In this document: one piece after another, positions 2,122 through 64,000 of the stretch
How the letters are laid out: the number at the start of each line of letters is the position of its first letter
How positions within the stretch are numbered: position 1 is the stretch's first letter
Assembly: GCA_041651155.1 (NCBI GenBank)
Contig: JBAZJU010000002.1
Coordinates: 89,852-153,851, forward strand
Direction of reading: 5' to 3'
Origin: Patescibacteria group bacterium
Lineage (GTDB): Bacteria; Patescibacteriota; Patescibacteriia; CAIXNZ01
Length of the DNA: 64,000 nt
Position numbers and translations under genes: made by a program
Notes under the pieces: generated by a model
Told to the model about the DNA's origin: nothing
The model's database searches: none
What the model saw: only the letters and a program-made list of their open reading frames with translations

Positions 2122-3273
2122 ATGAAAAAATCTTTAAAAATCGGATTTTTTACTGACACTTATTTGCCTCAGGTGAATGGCGTTGTTACCTCAATTGAAA
2201 GTTTTCGCCAGGAGCTAGAAAAACAAGGCCATCAGGTCTATATTTTTTGTCCCAGGGCTGACCATAAAAAAGATGACAAAAGTATAATCCGTTTCCCTTC
2301 TATAAAATTCGTTTTCCAGCCAGAATACCATGTTTCCTTGCCCTTTACCAGGCACTTATTGCGGGATTTTTGGGAAAAAGAATTAGATATTGTCCATGCT
2401 CACACGCCATTTAGCCTGGGTCTTTTAGGCTATTATTACTCATATATTAAGAAAGTTCCCTTTGTCTATACCTATCACACTCTTTATCCTGAATATGTAA
2501 AATCGTATGTGTGGAACGGCAGATTAATAACTCCTAAGATGGTTGCAAAAATTACGGCCATGTTTTCTAACAGATGCGATTTAAATATTGCCCCTTCGGG
2601 AAAGATAAAAAAACTTTTAAAAAGTTATGGCGTAAAAAAACCAATTACAGTATTGCCCACGGGAATTAAGGTTGAAAAATTCAGTAAAAGAGCCAGGCCA
2701 AATAATTTTAGAAGCAAATATAAAATTAAGCCTGAGGAAAAAGTTTTGCTTTATGTCGGACGGCTAGGGCAAGAAAAAAATATTGAATTTTTGCTTAAAG
2801 CATTTTTTGTATTAAAGCAAAGCCAGCAGAAAATTAAATTAATACTTGTCGGCGACGGCCCTGCTAAAAAGAATTTACAAAAGTTAGTTAAAGATCATGG
2901 CTTGGGTAAAGACGTTATCTTTACGAGTTATTTATCTCAAACAGAAGTAATTAGAGCGAATCAGTCAGCAGATTTATTTATTTTTGCTTCTAAAACTGAT
3001 ACTCAGGGTTTAGTTCTATTAGAAGCAGCTGCCAGCGGCTTGCCTATAGTCGCAGTGAAAGACGATGCCTTTGTTAAAATCTTAGAAGACAAGGTAAATG
3101 GATATATAGTAAAACAAAATGTGGCGGAATTTAATAAAAGAATATTGCAAATTTTAGATAACAAAAAATTATATCAGAGGTTATCCAAAAAATCAGCAGA
3201 GATTGCCGAGAATTTCAGTATTGAAAAGCAGACAGCTGAATTAATCCAAGCTTATCGTAAATTATTACACTAA
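2122..3273 (+). CDS. Glycosyltransferase family 4 (GT-B fold)
   Basis: EAAASGLPIVA motif and GT4-like N-terminal sugar-acceptor domain. Confidence 0.7.
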   Translation: MKKSLKIGFFTDTYLPQVNGVVTSIESFRQELEKQGHQVYIFCPRADHKKDDKSIIRFPSIKFVFQPEYHVSLPFTRHLLRDFWEKELDIVHAHTPFSLGLLGYYYSYIKKVPFVYTYHTLYPEYVKSYVWNGRLITPKMVAKITAMFSNRCDLNIAPSGKIKKLLKSYGVKKPITVLPTGIKVEKFSKRARPNNFRSKYKIKPEEKVLLYVGRLGQEKNIEFLLKAFFVLKQSQQKIKLILVGDGPAKKNLQKLVKDHGLGKDVIFTSYLSQTEVIRANQSADLFIFASKTDTQGLVLLEAAASGLPIVAVKDDAFVKILEDKVNGYIVKQNVAEFNKRILQILDNKKLYQRLSKKSAEIAENFSIEKQTAELIQAYRKLLH

Positions 3274-3323: not shown

Positions 3324-6221
3324 CTAATCTAAGATATTTAATTTTAAGCTGCTAGAATTGGCATTAGCGCCGCTCTTTGTTGAGATTTGCGCATAAATCT
3401 CGTAAGAACCCGTGGCTGGCGTATTTGTCCAGGTGAAGTTCATCTGCTCAGAGGAAACTTGCATGATGGTAGAGATTTTTTGTTCCGGCGCATTAAAGCT
3501 GCGGGCAAAGAAAGTCAGACCGGAGACCTCTGTTGATTTAGTAAGGATAAAATTAAAATTTAAAGGAAAGTTTGATTTGTAAAAATTGGAATTGTCCCTG
3601 GGGTTTAGCCAGTTGATTTGCGGCATAGCAGGCGGCAGTTTCAGGTTAACTGTGATCTGGACAGAAGTTGAATTATCAATATCATCATAAGCTGTGACTT
3701 TCAGCTGGTGATAGCCATTTTCAGCTTCAAGGGAATTAACATCTATATTATACGGGGAAGAAGTGGCTGTGCCAACTATATTATCATCAATTGCATAAAC
3801 AACTCGGCTAATGCCTCGCAACGCGCTAGCCTGGACTTGAAATTTAACCGGATAAGATTCTAAAGTTTGTTTATCCTGAGGATTAATAAGCGTCAAGGTT
3901 GGTTGGTTTTGAGGCACATGCAGATCATCAAATTCAGTCGGAGCTTGTTCATTGCTTATTTCAATGCCAGAATCCTTAGCTGTTTTTTCTACCCATTTAT
4001 TAACGCCATCTTCCCAGGCCTGGAACATTGGGTCAGCAGCTGGATTTTCTGGAGGAGGGCCAGTCGGATTATCTTTATTTATGTAATATAAAATATCATG
4101 ATTTTGATTAAACTTCTTTTTTATCCTGAAAGATTCAGGTGTTAAAGGTGTGGCTAATTTGCCTGAGGCTTTGTCTATTTCAACTTCCATATCAGAAGGA
4201 GATTGGCCGCGCAAAATCGGAGGCAAGGTCTCAGCAAGTGGCTCAGGAGCTTTAAACCCTTCAACAGGCGTGCCGTTTAAGGTTTTTTGCATATATTCAT
4301 GCCAAATTGGCGCGGCGACATTAACCCCATCTGCGTTGCCTTTCATGTCCGTACCATCGCTATTGCCAGCCCAGACTCCAGTCACAATAGAAGGAGTAAA
4401 GCCAATTGTCCAGCCATCATTATTATCATTGGTAGTGCCTGTTTTAGCTGCGACAGGCCTGTCAGATAAAGTTAAATTTGGCGCTGCGCCAAAAATAAAA
4501 GCGCGAGCGCTTGGGTCAGTTAAAATATTGTTAACCTGGCGCACTGCATTTTCTGACAAAACTTTGTGCTTTTTTTCTTTAAATTCATCCAGCACATTGC
4601 CGTTTTTATCTTCAACTTTCAAGATCGCTTGGACTTCAGCTCTTTCGCCATCGCGAGCAAGGGCTGTATAAGCGCCGACATGGTCAATTAATTTAACTTC
4701 ACAGCCGCCCAAGACTAAGGCCAGGCCGCATTGACTTTTGTCGGTAATTGTGGAATAACCCAGATTTTGCAAAAGCTTTTTGACATTATCATAGCCGGCC
4801 AAATAAAGAGTTTTAACAGCAGGAATATTTAAAGAGCCGGCCAGAGCTGATTTCATCGTAATCGGCCCTCTTTCTTTGAAGTCATAATCATGCGGCTCAT
4901 AAACTATTGGCGAGGTGGCGAAGATCGTGCTTACATCATACAAAATTGTTTCAGGGGTAAAGCCTTTTTCAAAAGCAGCGGCATAAACTATAGGTTTGAT
5001 TGAAGAGCCGGGCTGACGCGGTGAAATGGCGACATTAACTTGTCCTGAGATTTTGTCATCAGTAAAATCCTGAGAACCAACCATGGCTAGAATTTCGCCT
5101 GTTTTAGCATCAACTGAAACTAAAGCAGCATTGGAAGCATTATATTTTTTTAAATTATTATCTTTGGCATTATGGACTGCGTCTTCGGCAATTTTTTGCT
5201 TATCCATATCTAAGGTAGTAATGACTTTTAAACCGCCTTGTTCAATGGCCTTATCGCCTAATTTTTCCGCTAATAATTCTTTGACATAAAAAACAAAATG
5301 CGGTGCAGTAATGCCAGCCACAGCCTCTTTTTTAAATTCTAATTTTTCTGCTTTGGCATCTCCAGCTTCATCTTTGGTGATGTAACCGTTTTTTGCCATT
5401 TCATCCAAAATCCAATGCTGGCGCCAATATAAATCATCAGTATGCGAGCCATAAGGGGAGAGCCTGGTCGGCGCTTGGGGAATAGCGGCTAAAATAGCAG
5501 CCTCGCCCAAAGTTACGTCTTTGGCTTTTTTGCCGAAGAAATAATTGGCAGCTGACTCAACCCCATAATTAACAGACCCATAAGGGATTTCATTGAAATA
5601 CATTTTTAAAATTTGATCCTTGGTATATTTTTTTTCAATCTGGTAGGACAAAATCCATTCTTTTATTTTTCTGGGAATCGTTCTTTCGTTTGTTAAAATT
5701 GCGTTTTTTACCAATTGCTGAGTTAAGGTGGAGCCGCCACGAATCCCTTTCCCTCTTAAAGGATCAATAATAACTGATTCAATAATTGAAAAGAAATTTA
5801 TGCCATGATGTTCATAAAAGTACTTGTCTTCAGCGGAAATAGTCGCCCATTTAACATAATTAGAAATCTGATCCAGCTCTACAATTGTCCTTTTTTCATC
5901 ACCATGAATATCAAAAAGCAAGGTTTCACCTTTGCGGTCATAGATTTTGGTTGATTCAGAGACAACCCGGTCAATTAATTTATCTGGATTTGGCAAGTCA
6001 TGTGAAAACCAGGCGATGGCAGCCACAGAAAAGATCCCAAAAAGCAAAACCAAAATAATGCCTAAAATAATAAGTTTGCCAATTAGTTTTTTGGCTGAAA
6101 CTTTGTGTTTTTTAGGCTGATTATTATTGGCAGCTGCAAATTCATGGCTGCGATGGACCAGTCGGCGTTTTTTATGTCTTTGCCATTCTTTCGGTGATCT
6201 TGTTAATTGAGGGATGGGCAT
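3324..6221 (-). CDS. Class A penicillin-binding protein 1A (GT51 transglycosylase plus transpeptidase) with long C-terminal Ig-like extension
   Basis: GGSTLTQQ transglycosylase motif; SIKP (SxxK) and KTGTT (KTG) transpeptidase motifs; N-terminal TM anchor. ORF track extends to 6305 from a TTG; ATG at 6221 (MPIPQL) is the likely start. Confidence 0.85.
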   Translation of the reverse strand: MPIPQLTRSPKEWQRHKKRRLVHRSHEFAAANNNQPKKHKVSAKKLIGKLIILGIILVLLFGIFSVAAIAWFSHDLPNPDKLIDRVVSESTKIYDRKGETLLFDIHGDEKRTIVELDQISNYVKWATISAEDKYFYEHHGINFFSIIESVIIDPLRGKGIRGGSTLTQQLVKNAILTNERTIPRKIKEWILSYQIEKKYTKDQILKMYFNEIPYGSVNYGVESAANYFFGKKAKDVTLGEAAILAAIPQAPTRLSPYGSHTDDLYWRQHWILDEMAKNGYITKDEAGDAKAEKLEFKKEAVAGITAPHFVFYVKELLAEKLGDKAIEQGGLKVITTLDMDKQKIAEDAVHNAKDNNLKKYNASNAALVSVDAKTGEILAMVGSQDFTDDKISGQVNVAISPRQPGSSIKPIVYAAAFEKGFTPETILYDVSTIFATSPIVYEPHDYDFKERGPITMKSALAGSLNIPAVKTLYLAGYDNVKKLLQNLGYSTITDKSQCGLALVLGGCEVKLIDHVGAYTALARDGERAEVQAILKVEDKNGNVLDEFKEKKHKVLSENAVRQVNNILTDPSARAFIFGAAPNLTLSDRPVAAKTGTTNDNNDGWTIGFTPSIVTGVWAGNSDGTDMKGNADGVNVAAPIWHEYMQKTLNGTPVEGFKAPEPLAETLPPILRGQSPSDMEVEIDKASGKLATPLTPESFRIKKKFNQNHDILYYINKDNPTGPPPENPAADPMFQAWEDGVNKWVEKTAKDSGIEISNEQAPTEFDDLHVPQNQPTLTLINPQDKQTLESYPVKFQVQASALRGISRVVYAIDDNIVGTATSSPYNIDVNSLEAENGYHQLKVTAYDDIDNSTSVQITVNLKLPPAMPQINWLNPRDNSNFYKSNFPLNFNFILTKSTEVSGLTFFARSFNAPEQKISTIMQVSSEQMNFTWTNTPATGSYEIYAQISTKSGANANSSSLKLNILD

Positions 6222-8675: not shown

Positions 8676-10310
8676 ATGAAGAATCTCCTGCATTTAGGCG
8701 TAAAGTTAAAAGAACTGATAATAAAAAATCAGTTTATTTTGTATCTAATGATTTTTTTTACGGCTTTTTTGGCCTATTTGTGGATTCAGTCTTCACCGAC
8801 TTTTTTAGACCCCGATTCATTTTACCATCTAAAAATGGCCAAGCTTATTGCCGAGCGTGGAGTGATTTTAGATTTTCCCTGGCTGCAGTTTACAGTGCTA
8901 AAGGATTATTACATTGACCATCATTTTCTCTATCATGTTGCAGCCATACCTTTTATTAAGGTTTTTGGAGATTTTGCCGGATTTAAATTGTATACTGTAA
9001 TTTTGGCTACACTGTTTATCTTTTTGTCTTACTGTTTCTTTAAAAAGGAAAAGCTTAAATATGCAGAGATTTATGCGCTGATAATGATTTTTACAGCTGA
9101 CTTTATGTTTAGGATTTCTTTGGCCAAAGCCAGCGCGTTTTCTTTAATCATCTTATTTGCAGGCATATATTTTATTTTTTATAAGAAATACTGGCTTTTA
9201 TTTTTGGGCGCTTATTTGTATGTTTTGTCATATGGAGGGTTTCCGCTTCTGGCGGTAATCACCCTAATTTACGTTTTTGCGCGTGCTTTTGATTTAACTT
9301 TTATTAATAAAATAAAATTCATAGAGCCGGCGCATGTTTCATTAATAAAAAAAGTATTTAAGAATTTCGCGGTTTTTTTAAAGAATATTCTCTCGTGGGA
9401 GAGTGCAAGAATTATAGCCGCCACCTTGAGCGGAATTTTTGTCGGTCTGATTTTAAATCCATATTTTCCCAAAAATCTGAATTTTTATTGGCAGCAGCTG
9501 GTGCAGATCGGGATTATTAATTTTCAAGGCGTGGTTAATGTGGGCGGAGAGTGGTATCCATATGAATTTTTAAAATTAATTTCTGATACAGGAGTTTTAT
9601 TCATCTTTGGGGTAGTAGCTTTTGTCCTATTTTTTATTTTTATTAAAAAGCAAAACGCCAAAAGCATTTTCTTTTTATTGGCAGCCTTATTTTTTTTATT
9701 TTTAACCCTGAAATCAAAGCGTTATATAGAATATTTTGTGCCATTTTTAGATTTTTTCGTGGCTTTTACCCTAGGGAATATTCTTGCCGAGGTTAAAGTC
9801 AAAGAATTTTTGCAGATTTTTAAAAAAGAAAATTATATAATCGGCTTGCTCTTACATTTTTGTTTGATTTATGCGGCTATTATTTTTCCCTTAATAATGA
9901 TGCGGGATGCATATCTGACCAGGCAGAGCTTTAAGGGCGGGATAGAATTCAGCCGATTCTCCGGCATTAGCAAGTATTTGCTGGCAAATTCTCAGCCAGG
10001 ACAAATTGTAATGCAGACTGACTGGGATGATTGGCCGATGTTATTTTATTATAATGATAAGGATTATTATATTGTTGGTCTGGATCCGACTTTTATGTAT
10101 AATTATGATCCGGTGTTATATAATTTATTCGCAGATATAACTACAACAAAAAAAGCAGATGATTTGTATCAGATAGTTAAAAATACTTTTAAAGCCAGCT
10201 ATTTTATAGTGGATAAAGATCGCTTTTGGCTAGTTCAAAATTTGCAAAATGATGGTAATTTTACCAAAGTCTATGAAGATAATGACGGTTCAATATATAA
10301 ATTGAAGTAA
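8676..10310 (+). CDS. GT-C-fold-like polytopic membrane protein, candidate polyprenol-phosphate-sugar dependent glycosyltransferase
   Basis: 544 aa, more than 10 TM helices, acidic first extracytoplasmic loop (LDPDSFYH), large C-terminal soluble domain; immediately upstream of a GT2 Dpm1-like gene. Confidence 0.4.
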   Translation: MKNLLHLGVKLKELIIKNQFILYLMIFFTAFLAYLWIQSSPTFLDPDSFYHLKMAKLIAERGVILDFPWLQFTVLKDYYIDHHFLYHVAAIPFIKVFGDFAGFKLYTVILATLFIFLSYCFFKKEKLKYAEIYALIMIFTADFMFRISLAKASAFSLIILFAGIYFIFYKKYWLLFLGAYLYVLSYGGFPLLAVITLIYVFARAFDLTFINKIKFIEPAHVSLIKKVFKNFAVFLKNILSWESARIIAATLSGIFVGLILNPYFPKNLNFYWQQLVQIGIINFQGVVNVGGEWYPYEFLKLISDTGVLFIFGVVAFVLFFIFIKKQNAKSIFFLLAALFFLFLTLKSKRYIEYFVPFLDFFVAFTLGNILAEVKVKEFLQIFKKENYIIGLLLHFCLIYAAIIFPLIMMRDAYLTRQSFKGGIEFSRFSGISKYLLANSQPGQIVMQTDWDDWPMLFYYNDKDYYIVGLDPTFMYNYDPVLYNLFADITTTKKADDLYQIVKNTFKASYFIVDKDRFWLVQNLQNDGNFTKVYEDNDGSIYKLK

Positions 10311-42204: not shown

Positions 42205-44847
42205 TTAAGTTTTTGGCTTTCGGAATTTATATATGACCGCAGCCAAACTTAGTGCCAAAAACACAGCAGATGCAATTAAGTATTTCAAAACCGAATTTCC
42301 TAATTTATTGGGTGGAATTTGCGTGGAGGCTTCAGGGGCAGGGATTATTTGTTTTTCAATATCTGCTTCAGACCGAGGTAGTATTCTGTATTCTTCATTA
42401 TTTTTACTCAAGATGCCGGTAATTTTCAAATTATCTCCTTCAGCAAAATTAGCTTTGTTGATTTTGGTATTAGTTTTAAAATAAATTTCCGCTTCCCCGC
42501 TTTCATCTTTGATCATAAATTTTGAGCCATTTTTATCTAAAAGCAGTCCGGTAATTTGTACTAAATAACCGACTAGATCATTGTTAATTTCTTGAGAGGT
42601 TATAATTTTTGGTTGTGGCGGATCTTGATTTGAAATAACTTTAATATCTTGGGCAGACGCCAGTTTAATTCGTTTTTCACCCAAGGCTTCACTCAAGGTG
42701 CCGTTTAAATCCACTAAATCCCCGATTTTCAGATCAGGCCAGTTAGCTTTTGACATATAAACCTGAATGCCAGAACCAGCTACATACATCATGGTTTTAC
42801 CAAAAATATTTGGCAGGACTGAAACAACGCCCTGGGTTTTGACTAATGTGCCAACAGCCAAATTTTTAATATCTTTTAAATCAACTGAGACGACTTTTTT
42901 TGCGCTTGATTTTTTAGCAGTACTTTTTACAGCAGTGCTTTTGGCTGTTTGGGCGCTAACTTCACTCCCGCTTGATTCTGTAGTTGCAGTAATTTTAATC
43001 TTTTGGGCTTCTTTAGTTTCCAGCTGTCCATCACTCACTATTAAAGTAATTGAATAGGTGCCTTTTTGTTTGAATTGGTGCTGGGCAATCACAGAAGCAT
43101 AAGATTGGTCTTCTATTTGCCAGGTAAAATTTAATTCATCATCTTCCAGATCAAATGAATCTGAAGCATCACAGGTGATTATTTCATTAATATTGGCTGT
43201 CTTAGGACAATCAAGATTAATTTCCGGCGCATGGTTTAACTTGGTCAAAACATTTTCTTTGCCCGGGGTTGGCGTAATTGTCCAAAACCAGTAGCCATTT
43301 TCATCTTGGATATAAGAAGTATTTTCTGGCACATTCTCATCCTCGCTATATTTTACTGTTTGAATGGTTTTATCATCAGGGGAAATTAATTTTAGAGTTT
43401 CTTTGTCATTGTTTAAAGCCAGGCCGCTGATTTTTCTTTCAATAGCTAAGAATTCATTGGGTTTGAGAATGGTTGTTGTAAAATCATTTATAGAAATTCT
43501 ATATTTTTTCTTACTTGCATCCTGAATTTGCCAACCCTTTAGGTCTGCTTCTTGGTCGCCTGTATTTTTTAATTCAATGAACTCAAATTCCAGGTCAGAA
43601 CCGGGCGGATTAGGAAAAAGTTCATTTATAACAATTTTATCTTTAATTTTTTGCTTGCTTTCTTTGTCTGTTGTTTCAGTCGCTGTTTTACTTTTTTCTT
43701 CCTCTGTTAAAGAAATTATATTTGCTTCACCTTTAGTCGGTGTTTGGGTAACTGCGAAGTCATTTTTATTATTGAAAGTTTCAGCACCGTCAAAAATCCT
43801 GGCTGTGGAATCTGGGTCTTTGGCGACAGGCGCGTTATTCTCGGGGAAGCCATTATCCCAGTTGCCGTAAAAGACAGCATCAATAATATTATTTTTATCA
43901 TCTTTTAAAATTATGGCATCGCCGCTATTATTTAATTTGCCCTTAGGATTCTCAATGACCAGAAATTTATTATCAAAATTTGAGCCGATTGTACCAGTCA
44001 GATTGGTTTGCGCGCCTGAGCCGTCAGTGATTGTATAGCCGGCCAAATCAATATCAAAAATATTTTTATTGTAAAGTTCTAGCCATTCCACTTCTCCATC
44101 AGCCGGATCTGAGACAAACTCATTAATTACTAAGGTTCCGGAGGAAACAATTTTTCTGTTGCTTGAGGTTGAAGCAAGGGGATTGTCTTCCGGTTGAGGA
44201 TCATCGGCCGGCGGTTGATCAGGCGGCGGGTCGTCTGTGGGAGGCTCATCTGCCGGAGGATCGTCATCGGGCGGCGGGTCATCAGCCGGCGGCGGGTCAA
44301 TCGGAGGCTGATTTGGAAATTCATTGGCCTTGCCAGCGGAATTGGCAGCGGCATGAACTTGCCAGTTAGCCGTTGTATAATCATTTAAATTTAAATCAAC
44401 TCTTTGCAAAGAAGTGTCAGGGCAAGGCAAATAAGTAAAAATTTCAATGGTTTCGCCGGCAGAATTTTTTAAGCCAATTTCTTCGCCATCTTCGCGCAAA
44501 CTGGACCAGGAGCTATCAATAATTGTGCCAGTAAAGTCAGAATATTTTTGTTTGAACAAATCAGCTTTGTTGGCGATGATGGCATATTCACCTGGATCAA
44601 TGATTAAATCGTTTTGGAATGCGCTTAAGCGGTGATTAGTCTGGTCTTCGTAAAATTTCCAGTTAGTTAAATCAACCGGTTCTGCGCCTTTATTATAAAT
44701 TTCCACCCATTCATTGTCGCTTGTTTCATATGCGCCGATTTCTGAGATGACAATATCAGAATCAGCAGCGTAAGCATAAATCGGGAAATTAAAAAATCCC
44801 AACAATAATAAAGTTAGGACCGCAAATCTTTGTTTTTTGTTTTTCAT
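42205..44847 (-). CDS. Cell-surface protein with three lamin-tail domains (LTD), PKD-like domain, Pro/Asp-rich linker, OB-like domain and C-terminal TM anchor
   Basis: LTD signatures IVISEIGAYETSDNEWVEIYNKGAEPVDLTNWKF, LVINEFVSDPADGEVEWLELYNKN...DLAGYTI and IVINELFPNPPGSDLEFEFIELKNTGDQEADLKGWQI; PPxDDPPP linker; C-terminal hydrophobic helix then KFRKPKT. Confidence 0.55.
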   Translation of the reverse strand: MKNKKQRFAVLTLLLLGFFNFPIYAYAADSDIVISEIGAYETSDNEWVEIYNKGAEPVDLTNWKFYEDQTNHRLSAFQNDLIIDPGEYAIIANKADLFKQKYSDFTGTIIDSSWSSLREDGEEIGLKNSAGETIEIFTYLPCPDTSLQRVDLNLNDYTTANWQVHAAANSAGKANEFPNQPPIDPPPADDPPPDDDPPADEPPTDDPPPDQPPADDPQPEDNPLASTSSNRKIVSSGTLVINEFVSDPADGEVEWLELYNKNIFDIDLAGYTITDGSGAQTNLTGTIGSNFDNKFLVIENPKGKLNNSGDAIILKDDKNNIIDAVFYGNWDNGFPENNAPVAKDPDSTARIFDGAETFNNKNDFAVTQTPTKGEANIISLTEEEKSKTATETTDKESKQKIKDKIVINELFPNPPGSDLEFEFIELKNTGDQEADLKGWQIQDASKKKYRISINDFTTTILKPNEFLAIERKISGLALNNDKETLKLISPDDKTIQTVKYSEDENVPENTSYIQDENGYWFWTITPTPGKENVLTKLNHAPEINLDCPKTANINEIITCDASDSFDLEDDELNFTWQIEDQSYASVIAQHQFKQKGTYSITLIVSDGQLETKEAQKIKITATTESSGSEVSAQTAKSTAVKSTAKKSSAKKVVSVDLKDIKNLAVGTLVKTQGVVSVLPNIFGKTMMYVAGSGIQVYMSKANWPDLKIGDLVDLNGTLSEALGEKRIKLASAQDIKVISNQDPPQPKIITSQEINNDLVGYLVQITGLLLDKNGSKFMIKDESGEAEIYFKTNTKINKANFAEGDNLKITGILSKNNEEYRILPRSEADIEKQIIPAPEASTQIPPNKLGNSVLKYLIASAVFLALSLAAVIYKFRKPKT

Positions 44848-62919: not shown

Positions 62920-63525
62920 TTATTTTTTAACAAAACGAGGACTTAATAAAACGATAATTGCTCCAATTGCTGCGCCAATAGTATCTTGAATTAAATTTAC
63001 TACGGTAGTATCTGTTGTATTATCCAAACCCAAAACTTTTAAGTGCGTACCCCAGGTATTGTCGCTATAATTTTCAAATATTTCCCAGAGAATGCTACAT
63101 ATAATCACTAAACAAAAGGCAATGATTGTCGACCTTTGAATTGGGATTTGCCAGCGCAAAGAAATTACAACGGGTAATAAAATAATGCTTATCAAAGGAA
63201 TAATGACATGCAGAATATAAGAATAAGGGATTCCATACTGATATAATTCATAAAGTCCAAGAGAGCCAAGGGCGTTGGCAGCAATAGCAATGGTAAGCAA
63301 TAATTGTAATAGTTCGGCGGCACGATTTTTTTTGGCCGCATCAGGTGAATTTGCCGAGACCCTGATGAATTTAGGCAATAAGTAGATTGTTAATGCGCCT
63401 ATAATCATTGACCAACCTAGATAACGAACATCAATAAAAGACGGAATCCAGGAGATCGGCGCAATAACCAAGAAAATGCCCGCAGTCAATAATATTAAAA
63501 TAGATATTAATGGCAAACGTTTCAT
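62920..63525 (-). CDS. Hypothetical polytopic membrane protein (about 201 aa from ATG 63525)
   Basis: 5-6 TM helices. ORF track extension (MGPGFESL...) is translation of the adjacent tRNA-like element. Confidence 0.4.
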   Translation of the reverse strand: MKRLPLISILILLTAGIFLVIAPISWIPSFIDVRYLGWSMIIGALTIYLLPKFIRVSANSPDAAKKNRAAELLQLLLTIAIAANALGSLGLYELYQYGIPYSYILHVIIPLISIILLPVVISLRWQIPIQRSTIIAFCLVIICSILWEIFENYSDNTWGTHLKVLGLDNTTDTTVVNLIQDTIGAAIGAIIVLLSPRFVKK

Positions 63526-63547
63526 AGGTGACCCGGCCCCAAAGGGG

Positions 63548-63665
63548 GGCCTTCGGCCCAGGGATTCGAACCCTGGACCCACTGCTTAAGAGGCAGTTGC
63601 TCTACCAGCCCCAAAGGGGAGCCTTTGGCTCTGAGCTATTTACCTCAAAATTAATTTTTAATATT
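63548..63665 (-). tRNA. tRNA-Lys(CTT)-like element carrying two copies of a 24-nt palindromic insert (probable pseudo-tRNA)
   Basis: GCTCAGAG..GGTAGAGC D-arm, ACTGC CTCTTAA GCAGT anticodon arm, GGGTCCAGGGTTCGAATCCCTGG T-arm and CCGGGTCAC 3' acceptor. AGCCAAAGGCTCCCCTTTGGGGCT sits in the D-loop and GGCCGAAGGCCCCCCTTTGGGGCC between T-stem and acceptor; no complementary 5' acceptor strand found. Confidence 0.35.
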
Positions 63666-63956
63666 TTTAATAATTATCGGAAGTTTATTTTTTTCAGTAT
63701 TTTTTATTAAATTTATGATAGCCCTTTTCTCGTTAAATCCTTTCGGGTGTTTTAAATAGAATTCTCTTTTAAAGGCTAAATTTTTATCATTATAAATTTC
63801 ATAATAAACTAGTTCAAAAGGGATCCTGGGTTTAGTTGATTTAACCCAACCTTTATTGTGATAATTCTTTAATCTTTCCGCAGGTTTCTCCGAAGTACAA
63901 CCAATGTAAAAGCCGTAATCTTTTAAGCTATGTAAAAAGTAGACAAAATATTCCAT
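63651..63956 (-). CDS. GIY-YIG nuclease-family protein (Slx1/UPF0213-like)
   Basis: YFVYFLHSLKDYGFYIGCTSEKPAERLKNYHNKGWVKSTKPRIPFELVYYEIY matches GIY..YIG..R..E pattern. ATG at 63956 directly abuts the tRNA 3' end; ORF track extension (MGPGFESL) is tRNA sequence. Confidence 0.55.
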   Translation of the reverse strand: MEYFVYFLHSLKDYGFYIGCTSEKPAERLKNYHNKGWVKSTKPRIPFELVYYEIYNDKNLAFKREFYLKHPKGFNEKRAIINLIKNTEKNKLPIIIKNIKN

Positions 63957-63957
63957 G

Positions 63958-64000
63958 TGACCCGGCAGGGATTCGAACCCTGGACCCACTGCTTAAGAGG
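63958..64000 (-). tRNA. tRNA-Lys (anticodon CTT), 3' two-thirds only (truncated by window edge)
   Basis: Reverse strand ...CCTCTTAAGCAGTGGGTCCAGGGTTCGAATCCCTGCCGGGTCAC: anticodon loop CTCTTAA, canonical T-arm, acceptor 3' strand plus discriminator A. Confidence 0.6.

Follow-up and report, generated by a model that had tools for sequence, protein, structure and literature searches.

A partial tRNA-Lys gene in a Patescibacteria genome as the probable flank of a tRNA-targeting selfish cassette, colonised by a 22-nt double-hairpin element

A GIY-YIG nuclease gene, a partial tRNA gene copy and two copies of a 22-nt double-hairpin element lie beside the tRNA-Lys(CTT) gene at the end of a 64,000-nucleotide stretch of Patescibacteria DNA (contig JBAZJU010000002.1, positions 89,852 to 153,851; the whole stretch is called the window below). 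Our results indicate that this locus is probably one flank of the insertion of a selfish cassette that targets tRNA genes, and that the redundant tRNA copy was colonised by the 22-nt element. The two would represent apparently undescribed selfish DNAs of the candidate phyla radiation (CPR): a nuclease cassette that parasitises and regenerates tRNA genes, and an element that is among the smallest putative mobile elements and is tolerated in frame in essential proteins (valyl-tRNA synthetase (ValRS) and ATP synthase gamma). CPR bacteria form a very large and poorly understood radiation, and their tiny genomes are usually thought to be streamlined. Coordinates are those of the window; L001 is the source contig, a 131.9-kb ENA metagenome contig that extends past the window edge, and the other L numbers denote fetched loci of relatives or of elements. 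All features of the locus lie on the minus strand.

The tRNA-Lys locus and its GIY-YIG cassette

The piece at the window edge (63957..64000) is the 3' portion, approximately positions 31-74, of a normal tRNA-Lys(CTT), as the original prediction had proposed. The gene would run to window position 64030, and on L001 it is complete (9960-10033): ARAGORN calls it tRNA-Lys(ctt), and it scores 71.8 bits against Rfam RF00005 with the full model covered. Its acceptor stem is GACTCGG/CCGGGTC with a U4.G69 wobble. The ATG (63956) of a stand-alone GIY-YIG nuclease gene of 101 aa (63651..63956; Pfam PF01541) stands 2 nt past the discriminator of this intact tRNA. The stop codon of the nuclease gene is followed by the spacer TTTTGAGGTAAA (63639..63650), a conserved cassette junction that stands in place of a 5' acceptor strand. 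Beyond it lies a pseudo-tRNA-Lys (63528..63638, corrected from 63548-63665), which comprises tRNA positions 8-74 and two 22-nt inserts and has a core identical to the intact gene. Double-hairpin element 1, AGCCAAAGGCTCCCCTTTGGGG (63609..63630), is in the D-loop between positions 15/16, and element 2, GGCCGAAGGCCCCCCTTTGGGG (63537..63558), is between the 3' strand of the T-stem and the 3' strand of the acceptor stem (65/66). The DUF2238 membrane-protein gene (62920..63525; 201 aa; 22 homologues with PF09997) is the ancestral downstream neighbour of the tRNA-Lys gene. Its ATG (63525) is 4 nt past the discriminator of the second tRNA copy and 11 nt downstream of element 2.

A 51-nt core is exactly the same in the second copy and in the intact tRNA-Lys gene, 407 nt apart, which bears out the identity noted in the original prediction; the 3' strand CCGGGTCAC is common to both as well. 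The repeat begins at tRNA position 8 and covers 67 of the 74 positions. Where the 5' acceptor strand GACTCGG is required, the copy has AGGTAAA; the strand had rightly been reported as missing, under the incorrect sequence GACCCGG. The Rfam model matches the copy at tRNA model positions 9-63 only (31.4 bits). ARAGORN calls neither tRNA piece inside the window, and the copy remains uncalled before and after in-silico removal of the elements. A functional or bona fide intron-containing tRNA with a valid acceptor stem, an alternative named beforehand, was rejected on the basis of the unpaired 7-bp acceptor stem, the missing ARAGORN call and the partial Rfam match. These results show that the second copy is a dispensable pseudo-tRNA and no working tRNA.

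The junction ttttgaggYaaaTAGCTCAG recurs in the relatives L003, L070, L071 and L073. The L003 orthologue of the pseudo-tRNA has a T.T mismatch in the T-stem. The intact tRNA of L003 has the acceptor stem GGGTCGG/CCGACCC, whereas the copy next to DUF2238 has retained the 3' strand CCGAGTC, which is of the other type; the anticodon stem of that copy nonetheless agrees with the intact gene of its own genome. The difference in acceptor type suggests that the intact L003 tRNA is the incoming copy. From the mixed acceptor/anticodon pattern and the mismatched T-stem, we infer that the DUF2238-proximal copy is the displaced original, which is decaying and has been patchily converted. Such patchy gene conversion would keep a redundant copy similar to the functional gene.

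The DUF2238 homologues place the organism in Patescibacteria, near Candidatus Buchananbacteria. Ten orthologous loci were fetched, and in all of them the order is a CarS-like gene, tRNA-Arg, tRNA-Lys and DUF2238. The GIY-YIG gene is present at the site in the window, L003, L049 and L070-L073, is reduced to a 3'-end remnant in L005, and is absent from L006, L066, L067 and L069. In L006, L066 and L067, 2 nt separate tRNA-Lys from the DUF2238 ATG; in L069 (~2440-2450) the start codon of DUF2238 shares nucleotides with the 3' CCA that the tRNA-Lys gene encodes (…CCGACCCACCATG…). Because these four loci keep the site empty, the tight junction of 0-2 nt between tRNA-Lys and DUF2238 is ancestral. When the empty site of L006 was aligned with the window and L070, 86 columns of leader and tRNA-Lys contained a single mismatch. 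Beyond these columns L006 enters DUF2238 directly, whereas the window and L070 have the GIY-YIG ORF (open reading frame) and then the truncated tRNA. In L070 and L071 the generations are nested two or three deep: a dead remnant with its tRNA piece comes first, then a live ORF with its own piece. The same architecture with identical elements was found in three independent assemblies of a relative (L003, L004 and L072), which agree base for base, so that an assembly artefact or chimera, a possibility raised in the original prediction, is excluded.

The DUF2238 ATG lies 0-4 nt past the 3' end of tRNA-Lys or its remnant in all the orthologous loci examined. These gaps and the one CCA overlap suggest a mitochondria-like tRNA punctuation with near-leaderless mRNAs in these CPR bacteria. 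The close contact also affects annotation. As noticed at the outset, the translations of both downstream genes can begin with MGPGFESL, the T-arm read as protein; these N-termini are genuine ORF extensions from a GTG start within the T-arm (window 63582-63989). Public gene calls adopt the GTG-extended forms as products of 112 aa (GIY-YIG) and 220 aa (DUF2238), and NCBI lists the membrane protein in its 201-aa ATG form. Since tRNA and ORF abut, the MGPGFESL starts are annotation artefacts. Gene callers thus extend ORFs into tRNA, and tRNA finders miss or mis-score partial tRNA copies.

The GIY-YIG protein matches PF01541 at 37.2 bits (cut-off 22.6) over residues 3-74 of 101, and Y6, Y17, G19, R28, H33, N34 and E53 are invariant in 7 homologues. 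The nearest solved structure is 1zg2 (UPF0213), with weak similarity (E = 3e-4). No separate DNA-binding domain of the I-TevI or NUMOD type was found, and the protein has no further Pfam match and no NCBIfam match.

To sample the protein independently of the mini-element, we collected 80 metagenomic loci encoding GIY-YIG relatives. An intact tRNA on the same strand lay within 150 nt of the GIY-YIG gene in 30 of the 80 loci, compared with about 2-3% expected from the tRNA density of the window. At least 14 tRNA species were represented, and all 30 loci were in low-GC, CPR-like contigs. The geometry of the cassette takes several forms: the ATG lies 1-3 nt past the tRNA, the gene runs up to a downstream tRNA that its stop codon overlaps or almost touches, or a GC-rich hairpin region of ~100 nt lies between gene and tRNA. 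On the far side of the ORF, part of the same tRNA is repeated in most of the cassette loci examined. Upstream tRNAs (Lys-CTT, Lys-TTT and Leu-CAA) have their 3' portion copied there, downstream tRNAs (Ser, Glu, Leu and Trp) their 5' portion. Two Saccharibacteria genomes, found through the element, have the mirror-image arrangement at tRNA-Ser. The GIY-YIG ORF therefore lies within a direct repeat of part of a tRNA gene, as is characteristic of elements that insert at tRNA genes and restore them. The duplication of a tRNA together with a cargo gene had been predicted from the window alone, and the empty and filled sites among relatives and the recurrence of GIY-YIG gene and partial repeat at many tRNA species support it.

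Taken as comparative evidence, the empty sites, the nested remnants and the same architecture at many tRNAs show that the arrangement arose by insertion. In the ancestral state, tRNA-Lys(CTT) was followed after 0-2 nt by the DUF2238 gene. A GIY-YIG cassette would then have inserted between the two, leaving a 5'-truncated tRNA copy fused to DUF2238. The cassette may spread in a homing-like manner, by break repair with the tRNA and DUF2238 as homology arms.

Other hairpins accompany some of the cassettes. Larger GC-rich double hairpins fill the ~100 nt between tRNA and GIY-YIG ORF in L080, L084, L094, L095, L098 and L126. The tRNAs at these cassettes are those for Asp, Gln, Asn, Pro and Met, and an example of this larger family is GCCCTGAACC-ATAC-GGTTCAGGGC followed by a second hairpin. 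In L107 (~1085-1104) and L078 (~1444-1462), tRNA-Glu 5' fragments that lie upstream of GIY-YIG ORFs are interrupted by the 20-nt perfect palindrome CCTGCCTGCCGGCAGGCAGG or a sequence very similar to it.

The 22-nt double-hairpin element

The insert, which had been estimated at 24 nt, is a 22-nt element made up of two 4-bp hairpins (N4-RAA-N4' and N4-TTY-N4') with RAA and TTY triloops. Its GC content is 64-77%, and that of the window is 37%. The two inserts in the pseudo-tRNA have three differences, two of which are compensatory within the first hairpin. No third copy was present in the 64-kb window, and 0 of 100 shuffles gave any match. None of the other GC-rich islands of the window that were checked forms a double hairpin.

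Outside the window, the 21-nt core GCCRAAGGCYCCCCTTYGGGG had 58 exact occurrences in a collection of species-representative genomes, where a handful was expected. The stretches carrying it belong mostly to metagenome-assembled genomes (MAGs) of CPR bacteria, including Saccharibacteria, Kazan, Peribacteria, Berkelbacteria, Roizmanbacteria, Gracilibacteria, Parcubacteria and others. The original prediction would have been refuted by an element found nowhere else, which is thus not the case. A phage origin was rejected, as 2.9 million viral contigs contained no match to the core. A generalised search, which included variants with 5-6-bp stems, found 77 double hairpins in 526 kb compared with 3 in shuffled sequence. 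The aligned variants were paired in 98.8% of cells, a fraction that is partly circular because the variants were largely gathered with a finder that requires pairing; the L003 and L005 variants were recognised from position alone. Six of the eight pairs had changed on both sides, which 0 of 500 shuffles reached. The architecture is the same on both strands, and both orientations were found. A single long hairpin (CCRAAGG/CCTTYGG) was rejected, as its covariation was no better than that of shuffles and the loops vary independently. Rfam searches at gathering and permissive thresholds returned tRNA only, and no element overlaps another Rfam RNA.

The positions of the element indicate that it has been gained repeatedly at a dispensable target. 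In partial tRNA copies next to an intact gene it occupies positions 7/8, 10/11, 12/13, 15/16, 26/27, 43/44, 53-56 and 65/66. The D-loop element stands at the identical site in L003, L070, L071, L072 and L073, and other tRNA fragments, in L013 and L019, hold one there as well. The DUF2238-proximal pseudo-tRNA contains the D-loop element alone in L070, the D-loop and 65/66 elements in the window, and those two with a third at 43/44 in L071. L003 and L072 have four (D-loop, 26/27, 43/44 and 65/66), as has L073 (D-loop, 26/27, 55/56 and 65/66). Because these orthologous pseudo-tRNAs hold 1 to 4 copies, the element was gained over time. The 65/66 site is filled in L003, L049, L071 and L073, contains a compensated variant in L005, and is empty in L070. 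Comparison of L070 with the window at this site revealed a clean 22-nt difference with no target duplication and at most 1 nt of ambiguity. A 1-nt target-site duplication was rejected because the flanking base is often unlike the last base of the element. Orthologous tRNA-Ser fragments of L044 and L047 differ in where the element sits and have it in opposite orientation, and the pseudo-tRNA of L074 contains five inserts of at least four hairpin families. The original prediction of a small palindromic element able to hit a tRNA twice therefore stands with respect to a mobile-looking family dispersed in CPR bacteria, and needs amending with respect to the target, which is a pseudo-tRNA and not a working tRNA. 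When elements were deleted in silico (61 loci, ~70 cases), ARAGORN found no new tRNA across any deletion site.

The element also occurs in the apical loops of larger palindromic repeats (a Kazan ~75-nt repeat and Peribacteria palindromes) and in plain intergenic DNA. Inverted repeats flank 31% of the elements and 9.5% of random positions. Four elements from different CPR bacteria lie in frame within protein-coding genes: ValRS (L048 ~3090-3111), ATP synthase gamma (L041 ~1433-1454), a nucleotidyl transferase (L045 ~3879-3900) and MnmA (L008 ~466-487). They are translated as KAEGSPSG, KAKGSPSG or APKGSLRL, and annotated proteins thereby gain spurious-looking inserts such as KAEGSPSG. An ATP synthase gamma 94% identical to the element-bearing one is without the insert.

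From these patterns, the mini-element may be regarded as a miniature insertional DNA element of many CPR phyla, whose entry is precise, leaves no target-site duplication and may take either orientation. It would survive where it is tolerated, namely in partial tRNA copies, in the loops of palindromic repeats, in intergenic DNA and, in frame, in variable loops of proteins. Every sampled cassette of this lineage has the D-loop element, which therefore probably predates the divergence of the lineage and travels with the cassette. The 65/66 copy and the further copies in relatives would be later gains. The cassette and the mini-element were treated as separate because most cassettes lack the element and most elements have no GIY-YIG gene nearby; their adjacency appears to follow from the link that each has with tRNA fragments.

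The ~75-nt repeat (gtcatcctgaaaacactttactg[22-mer]ccgtaggc…ttcaggatc) has the element at its centre. At least 15 copies are present in one Kazan genome, and L059 has three copies in tandem. Its loci (L009, L014, L021, L024, L034, L050, L056, L058, L059, L062 and L063) derive from candidate division Kazan and one other Patescibacteria MAG. In L014, inverted termini like those of the repeat (TGTCATCCTG / CGAGGATGACA) flank a GIY-YIG ORF.

Alternative explanations

Several points weigh against the interpretation of the locus as a selfish cassette insertion whose redundant tRNA copy was colonised by a mobile element. A DNA-binding domain, which characterised homing endonucleases possess, is missing from the GIY-YIG protein. 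The mobility of cassette and element would be read from comparative patterns only. The 65/66 element and the acceptor 3' strand are kept before the DUF2238 ATG down to 60% protein identity (L049), and a different hairpin is present at the same place in L068; these could reflect function rather than neutral colonisation. In addition to the partial circularity of the paired fraction mentioned above, all data are metagenome assemblies, and copies were scanned for in only ~74 kb of the genome of this organism.

A wider proposal would join cassette and element into one system, and we consider it rather unlikely. According to it, the stand-alone (Slx1-like) GIY-YIG nucleases of CPR bacteria would be structure-guided homing enzymes that recognise the cloverleaf or hairpin-forming DNA of any tRNA gene and not a particular sequence. 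The 22-nt hairpins would be substrates mobilised by the nuclease, or inserts shielding the leftover tRNA from re-cutting and from repeat-mediated deletion. Such recognition would explain how a catalytic domain of 100 aa without a DNA-binding module is found at 14 or more tRNA genes.

It is also conceivable, with a low probability, that the tRNA remnant with its hairpins works in cis as a functional RNA, as the 5' leader of DUF2238 and, among relatives, also of the GIY-YIG gene, and that the hairpins are selected. They might block tRNA processing or charging, stabilise the 5' end of the mRNA, or provide a processing site from which an mRNA with almost no leader results, acting as the 3' end of an intact tRNA would via RNase Z. 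The start codons always lie 0-4 nt past the 3' end of the tRNA or its remnant, with the CCA overlap in L069. In the window, L003, L005, L049, L071 and L073, DUF2238 has before it one and the same module, which runs from the T-stem 3' strand through the element and the acceptor 3' strand to the ATG; the GIY-YIG gene has this module before it in L003, L049, L070 and L071. The L005 variant has several substitutions relative to the 65/66 elements of relatives, all compensatory, and the different hairpin of L068 occupies the same place. A role as terminator or promoter was rejected, as no sites resembling terminators were present and sites resembling promoters were not in excess; that no terminator and no promoter excess lie between tRNA and DUF2238 fits a leader. 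However, L070 has no 65/66 element before DUF2238, the number and positions of elements differ among close relatives, and we take the empty-site relatives to express DUF2238 without the element. The 22-mer is moreover found in both orientations, in tRNA 5' fragments with no gene after them, in unrelated palindromic repeats and in coding sequences. The state of L070 and the occurrences in coding sequences and repeats argue for insertional DNA over a cis-regulatory role of the 65/66 hairpin.

There is a similarly small chance that the GIY-YIG nuclease itself makes the 22-nt inserts, as a mobilising enzyme or through templated repair of cuts in tRNA-like DNA, and that the two are a single system. 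Among the loci centred on the element, 6 of 8 independent GIY-YIG ORFs lie within ~100 nt of an element, and the five closest relatives of the cassette all have elements. The protein is one of the stand-alone proteins of the Slx1-like group, to which structure-specific nucleases of eukaryotes are related. The similar inverted termini of the GIY-YIG ORF and of the element-bearing ~75-nt repeat in the Kazan genome point in the same direction. On the other hand, about 24 of the 30 GIY-YIG/tRNA cassettes are without an element, more than 50 of 61 elements have no GIY-YIG gene within 4 kb, and the adjacency can be explained by the common tie to tRNA fragments. The elements also lie within the duplicated tRNA segment, away from its junctions. 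Mobilisation of the RAYT/IS200 type, prompted by a single Y1_Tnp gene at the edge of L003, appears unlikely; no further Y1 homologue was found in the window or in 766 kb of element-bearing loci.

It is very improbable that the second copy is a real tRNA with two mini-introns, or a split tRNA that receives its 5' strand in trans from orphan tRNA-Lys 5' fragments. Excision of exactly 22 nt per site would restore a normal D-loop and T/acceptor sequence, and orphan 5' pieces (starting with GACTCGGTAGCTC or GGGTCGGTAGCTC) lie 300-700 nt upstream. However, the host is bacterial, as RNase III, NusB and GyrA in the vicinity and the CPR homologues show, and inspection of the insert/exon junctions showed that no bulge-helix-bulge geometry is possible, which led us to reject an archaeal-type intron or split tRNA. 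In neither insert could the 5' end of the intron pair with the 3' exon on inspection. The 5' pieces have no complementarity to the leader of the second copy, and no GC-rich complement was found beside the orphan fragments. The absence of any tRNA call after element removal in ~70 cases, the broken T-stem of the L003 orthologue, the variation from 1 to 4 elements among orthologues and the presence of an intact tRNA-Lys(CTT) 330 nt away are all against a working tRNA.

Duplications of tRNA 3' ends are typical of integrative elements. An attL/attR-type scar of an integrase-mediated island in tRNA-Lys, for which a defence island (MmeI-type restriction-modification and AbiEii) a few kb upstream of the L001 tRNA cluster might speak, or an assembly chimera is scarcely credible: the ~330 bp between the repeats contain just one 101-aa ORF, the GIY-YIG gene, and no integrase, the repeat spans 67 of 74 tRNA positions, the ORF-in-repeat architecture occurs at 14 or more tRNA species with 5' or 3' duplications, and independent assemblies agree.

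Relation to known systems

Free-standing homing-endonuclease genes that carry a replacement copy are known from GIY-YIG and LAGLIDADG ORFs located 3' of fungal mitochondrial genes (Allomyces atp6) and from segB in the tRNA gene cluster of phage T4. The CPR cassette resembles them as a selfish nuclease ORF, patchily present at one conserved site, where the host gene is regenerated and a displaced partial copy remains beside the ORF. The cycles of invasion, decay and re-invasion (L005, L070 and L071) are a further likeness. The cassette differs from them in that its targets are many tRNA genes and in that its protein is a catalytic domain of 101 aa without a DNA-binding module.

The double-hairpin elements (DHEs) of Allomyces are 26-79 bp long. 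DHEs have been described in the mitochondrial genomes of chytrids and fission yeasts (Paquin & Lang 1996; Paquin et al. 2000; Bullerwell et al. 2003, via PMC10085805). According to PMC10085805, they are short GC-rich elements of two adjacent hairpins in an AT-rich genome, dispersed, intergenic and occasionally inside genes, and identical or nearly identical across species, with mobility deduced; the 22-nt element resembles them in all these respects. Unlike DHEs, the CPR element is bacterial, 22 nt long and strongly enriched in partial tRNA gene copies. Because its hosts are CPR bacteria, we regard the element as an analogue and not a member of the DHEs; sequence homology to DHEs is not expected. 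The element is also similar to the GC clusters of yeast mitochondria (e.g. GC42; PMC4478555), which are GC-rich palindromic mini-elements with presence/absence polymorphism between close relatives. GC clusters merge with or adjoin other clusters, as do the multi-family inserts of the L074 pseudo-tRNA, and the mechanism of their transposition is unsettled, with intron-encoded endonucleases suggested as helpers (PMC4478555). A putative AG target-site duplication has been reported for GC clusters (PMC4478555), whereas the CPR element shows an exact 22-nt gain without one; size and host compartment also differ. The element may thus provide a bacterial counterpart to mitochondrial DHEs and GC clusters, whose movement has been debated for decades.

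Among bacterial repeats, repetitive extragenic palindromes and the mosaics built of them (REP/BIME) and miniature inverted-repeat transposable elements (MITEs) are likewise small dispersed palindromes, often GC-rich stem-loops (PMC3733652, PMC3184786). Unlike REP/BIME, which are strictly extragenic (PMC3733652, PMC3184786), the element has no GTAG or CGTC tag and occurs within tRNA fragments and coding sequences. A MITE was rejected, as the element consists of side-by-side hairpins without terminal inverted repeats and makes no target-site duplication. The GIY-YIG protein resembles the stand-alone prokaryotic Slx1-like/UPF0213 family (PDB 1zg2; PMC1564403) in size and domain content, with a weak match; PMC1564403 gives no established function and no tRNA-gene association for that family. 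Group I introns have been reported in CPR tRNAs (PMC13011429). For CPR rRNA genes, insertions at the tops or bases of stem-loops have been reported, as have GIY-YIG ORFs in insertions that are not introns (PMC11270868). Neither the element nor the cassette is mentioned in PMC13011429, PMC11270868 or PMC1564403, and no prior description was found in the literature, coverage of which was incomplete.

Neighbouring sequences

Other hairpin units lie in tRNA fragments beyond the window edge. Two units of ~110-140 nt are located upstream of the intact tRNA-Lys (L001 9654-9760 and 9797-9936, ~window 64054-64336). Each opens with the leader of tRNA-Lys and its positions 1-13 (GACTCGGTAGCTC or GGGTCGGTAGCTC) and continues with a GC-rich hairpin, CCCRCC-TTCG…GCTAYGG-YGGGCAGGCAG, and an inverted copy of tRNA positions 4-23. 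The units fold well, with z-scores of -2.9 and -4.2, and have compensatory changes and no Rfam match. They recur in L003, L005, L006, L049 and L067; their core is also found in Berkelbacteria (L023 and L051), within the L074 pseudo-tRNA and, reversed, in L068. They share the motif GGCAGGCAG with the CCTGCCTGCCGGCAGGCAGG palindrome of the tRNA-Glu fragments. Probably, these units are a further family of hairpin elements in tRNA 5' fragments.

Directly after tRNA-Arg(TCG), L001 9585-9650 is a copy of the tRNA-Arg T-arm and acceptor 3' strand with a hairpin of ~31 nt (UUCG loop) within the T-loop. It is conserved among relatives and also present in L006, L066 and L069; L067 has instead a tRNA-Arg 5' fragment holding a 30-nt double hairpin with 6-bp stems.

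The other tRNA cluster of the window (Gly/Leu, 38.4-39.2 kb) has no comparable structure, and an ordinary gene lies between its two tRNAs. A GC-rich stretch at 44222-44304, composed of repeated GGCGGCGGGTC units, is unrelated to the double-hairpin element and is probably a coding repeat. Past the window edge, L001 1-9365 encodes on the opposite strand an MmeI-type restriction-modification fusion, an AbiEii toxin gene, HATPase/DUF4325, VanW, HSP20 and TrmB, followed by genes for a CDP-alcohol phosphatidyltransferase and a CarS-like protein (CDP-archaeol synthase family). A defence island and archaeal-type lipid genes thus adjoin the tRNA hotspot in this CPR bacterium.

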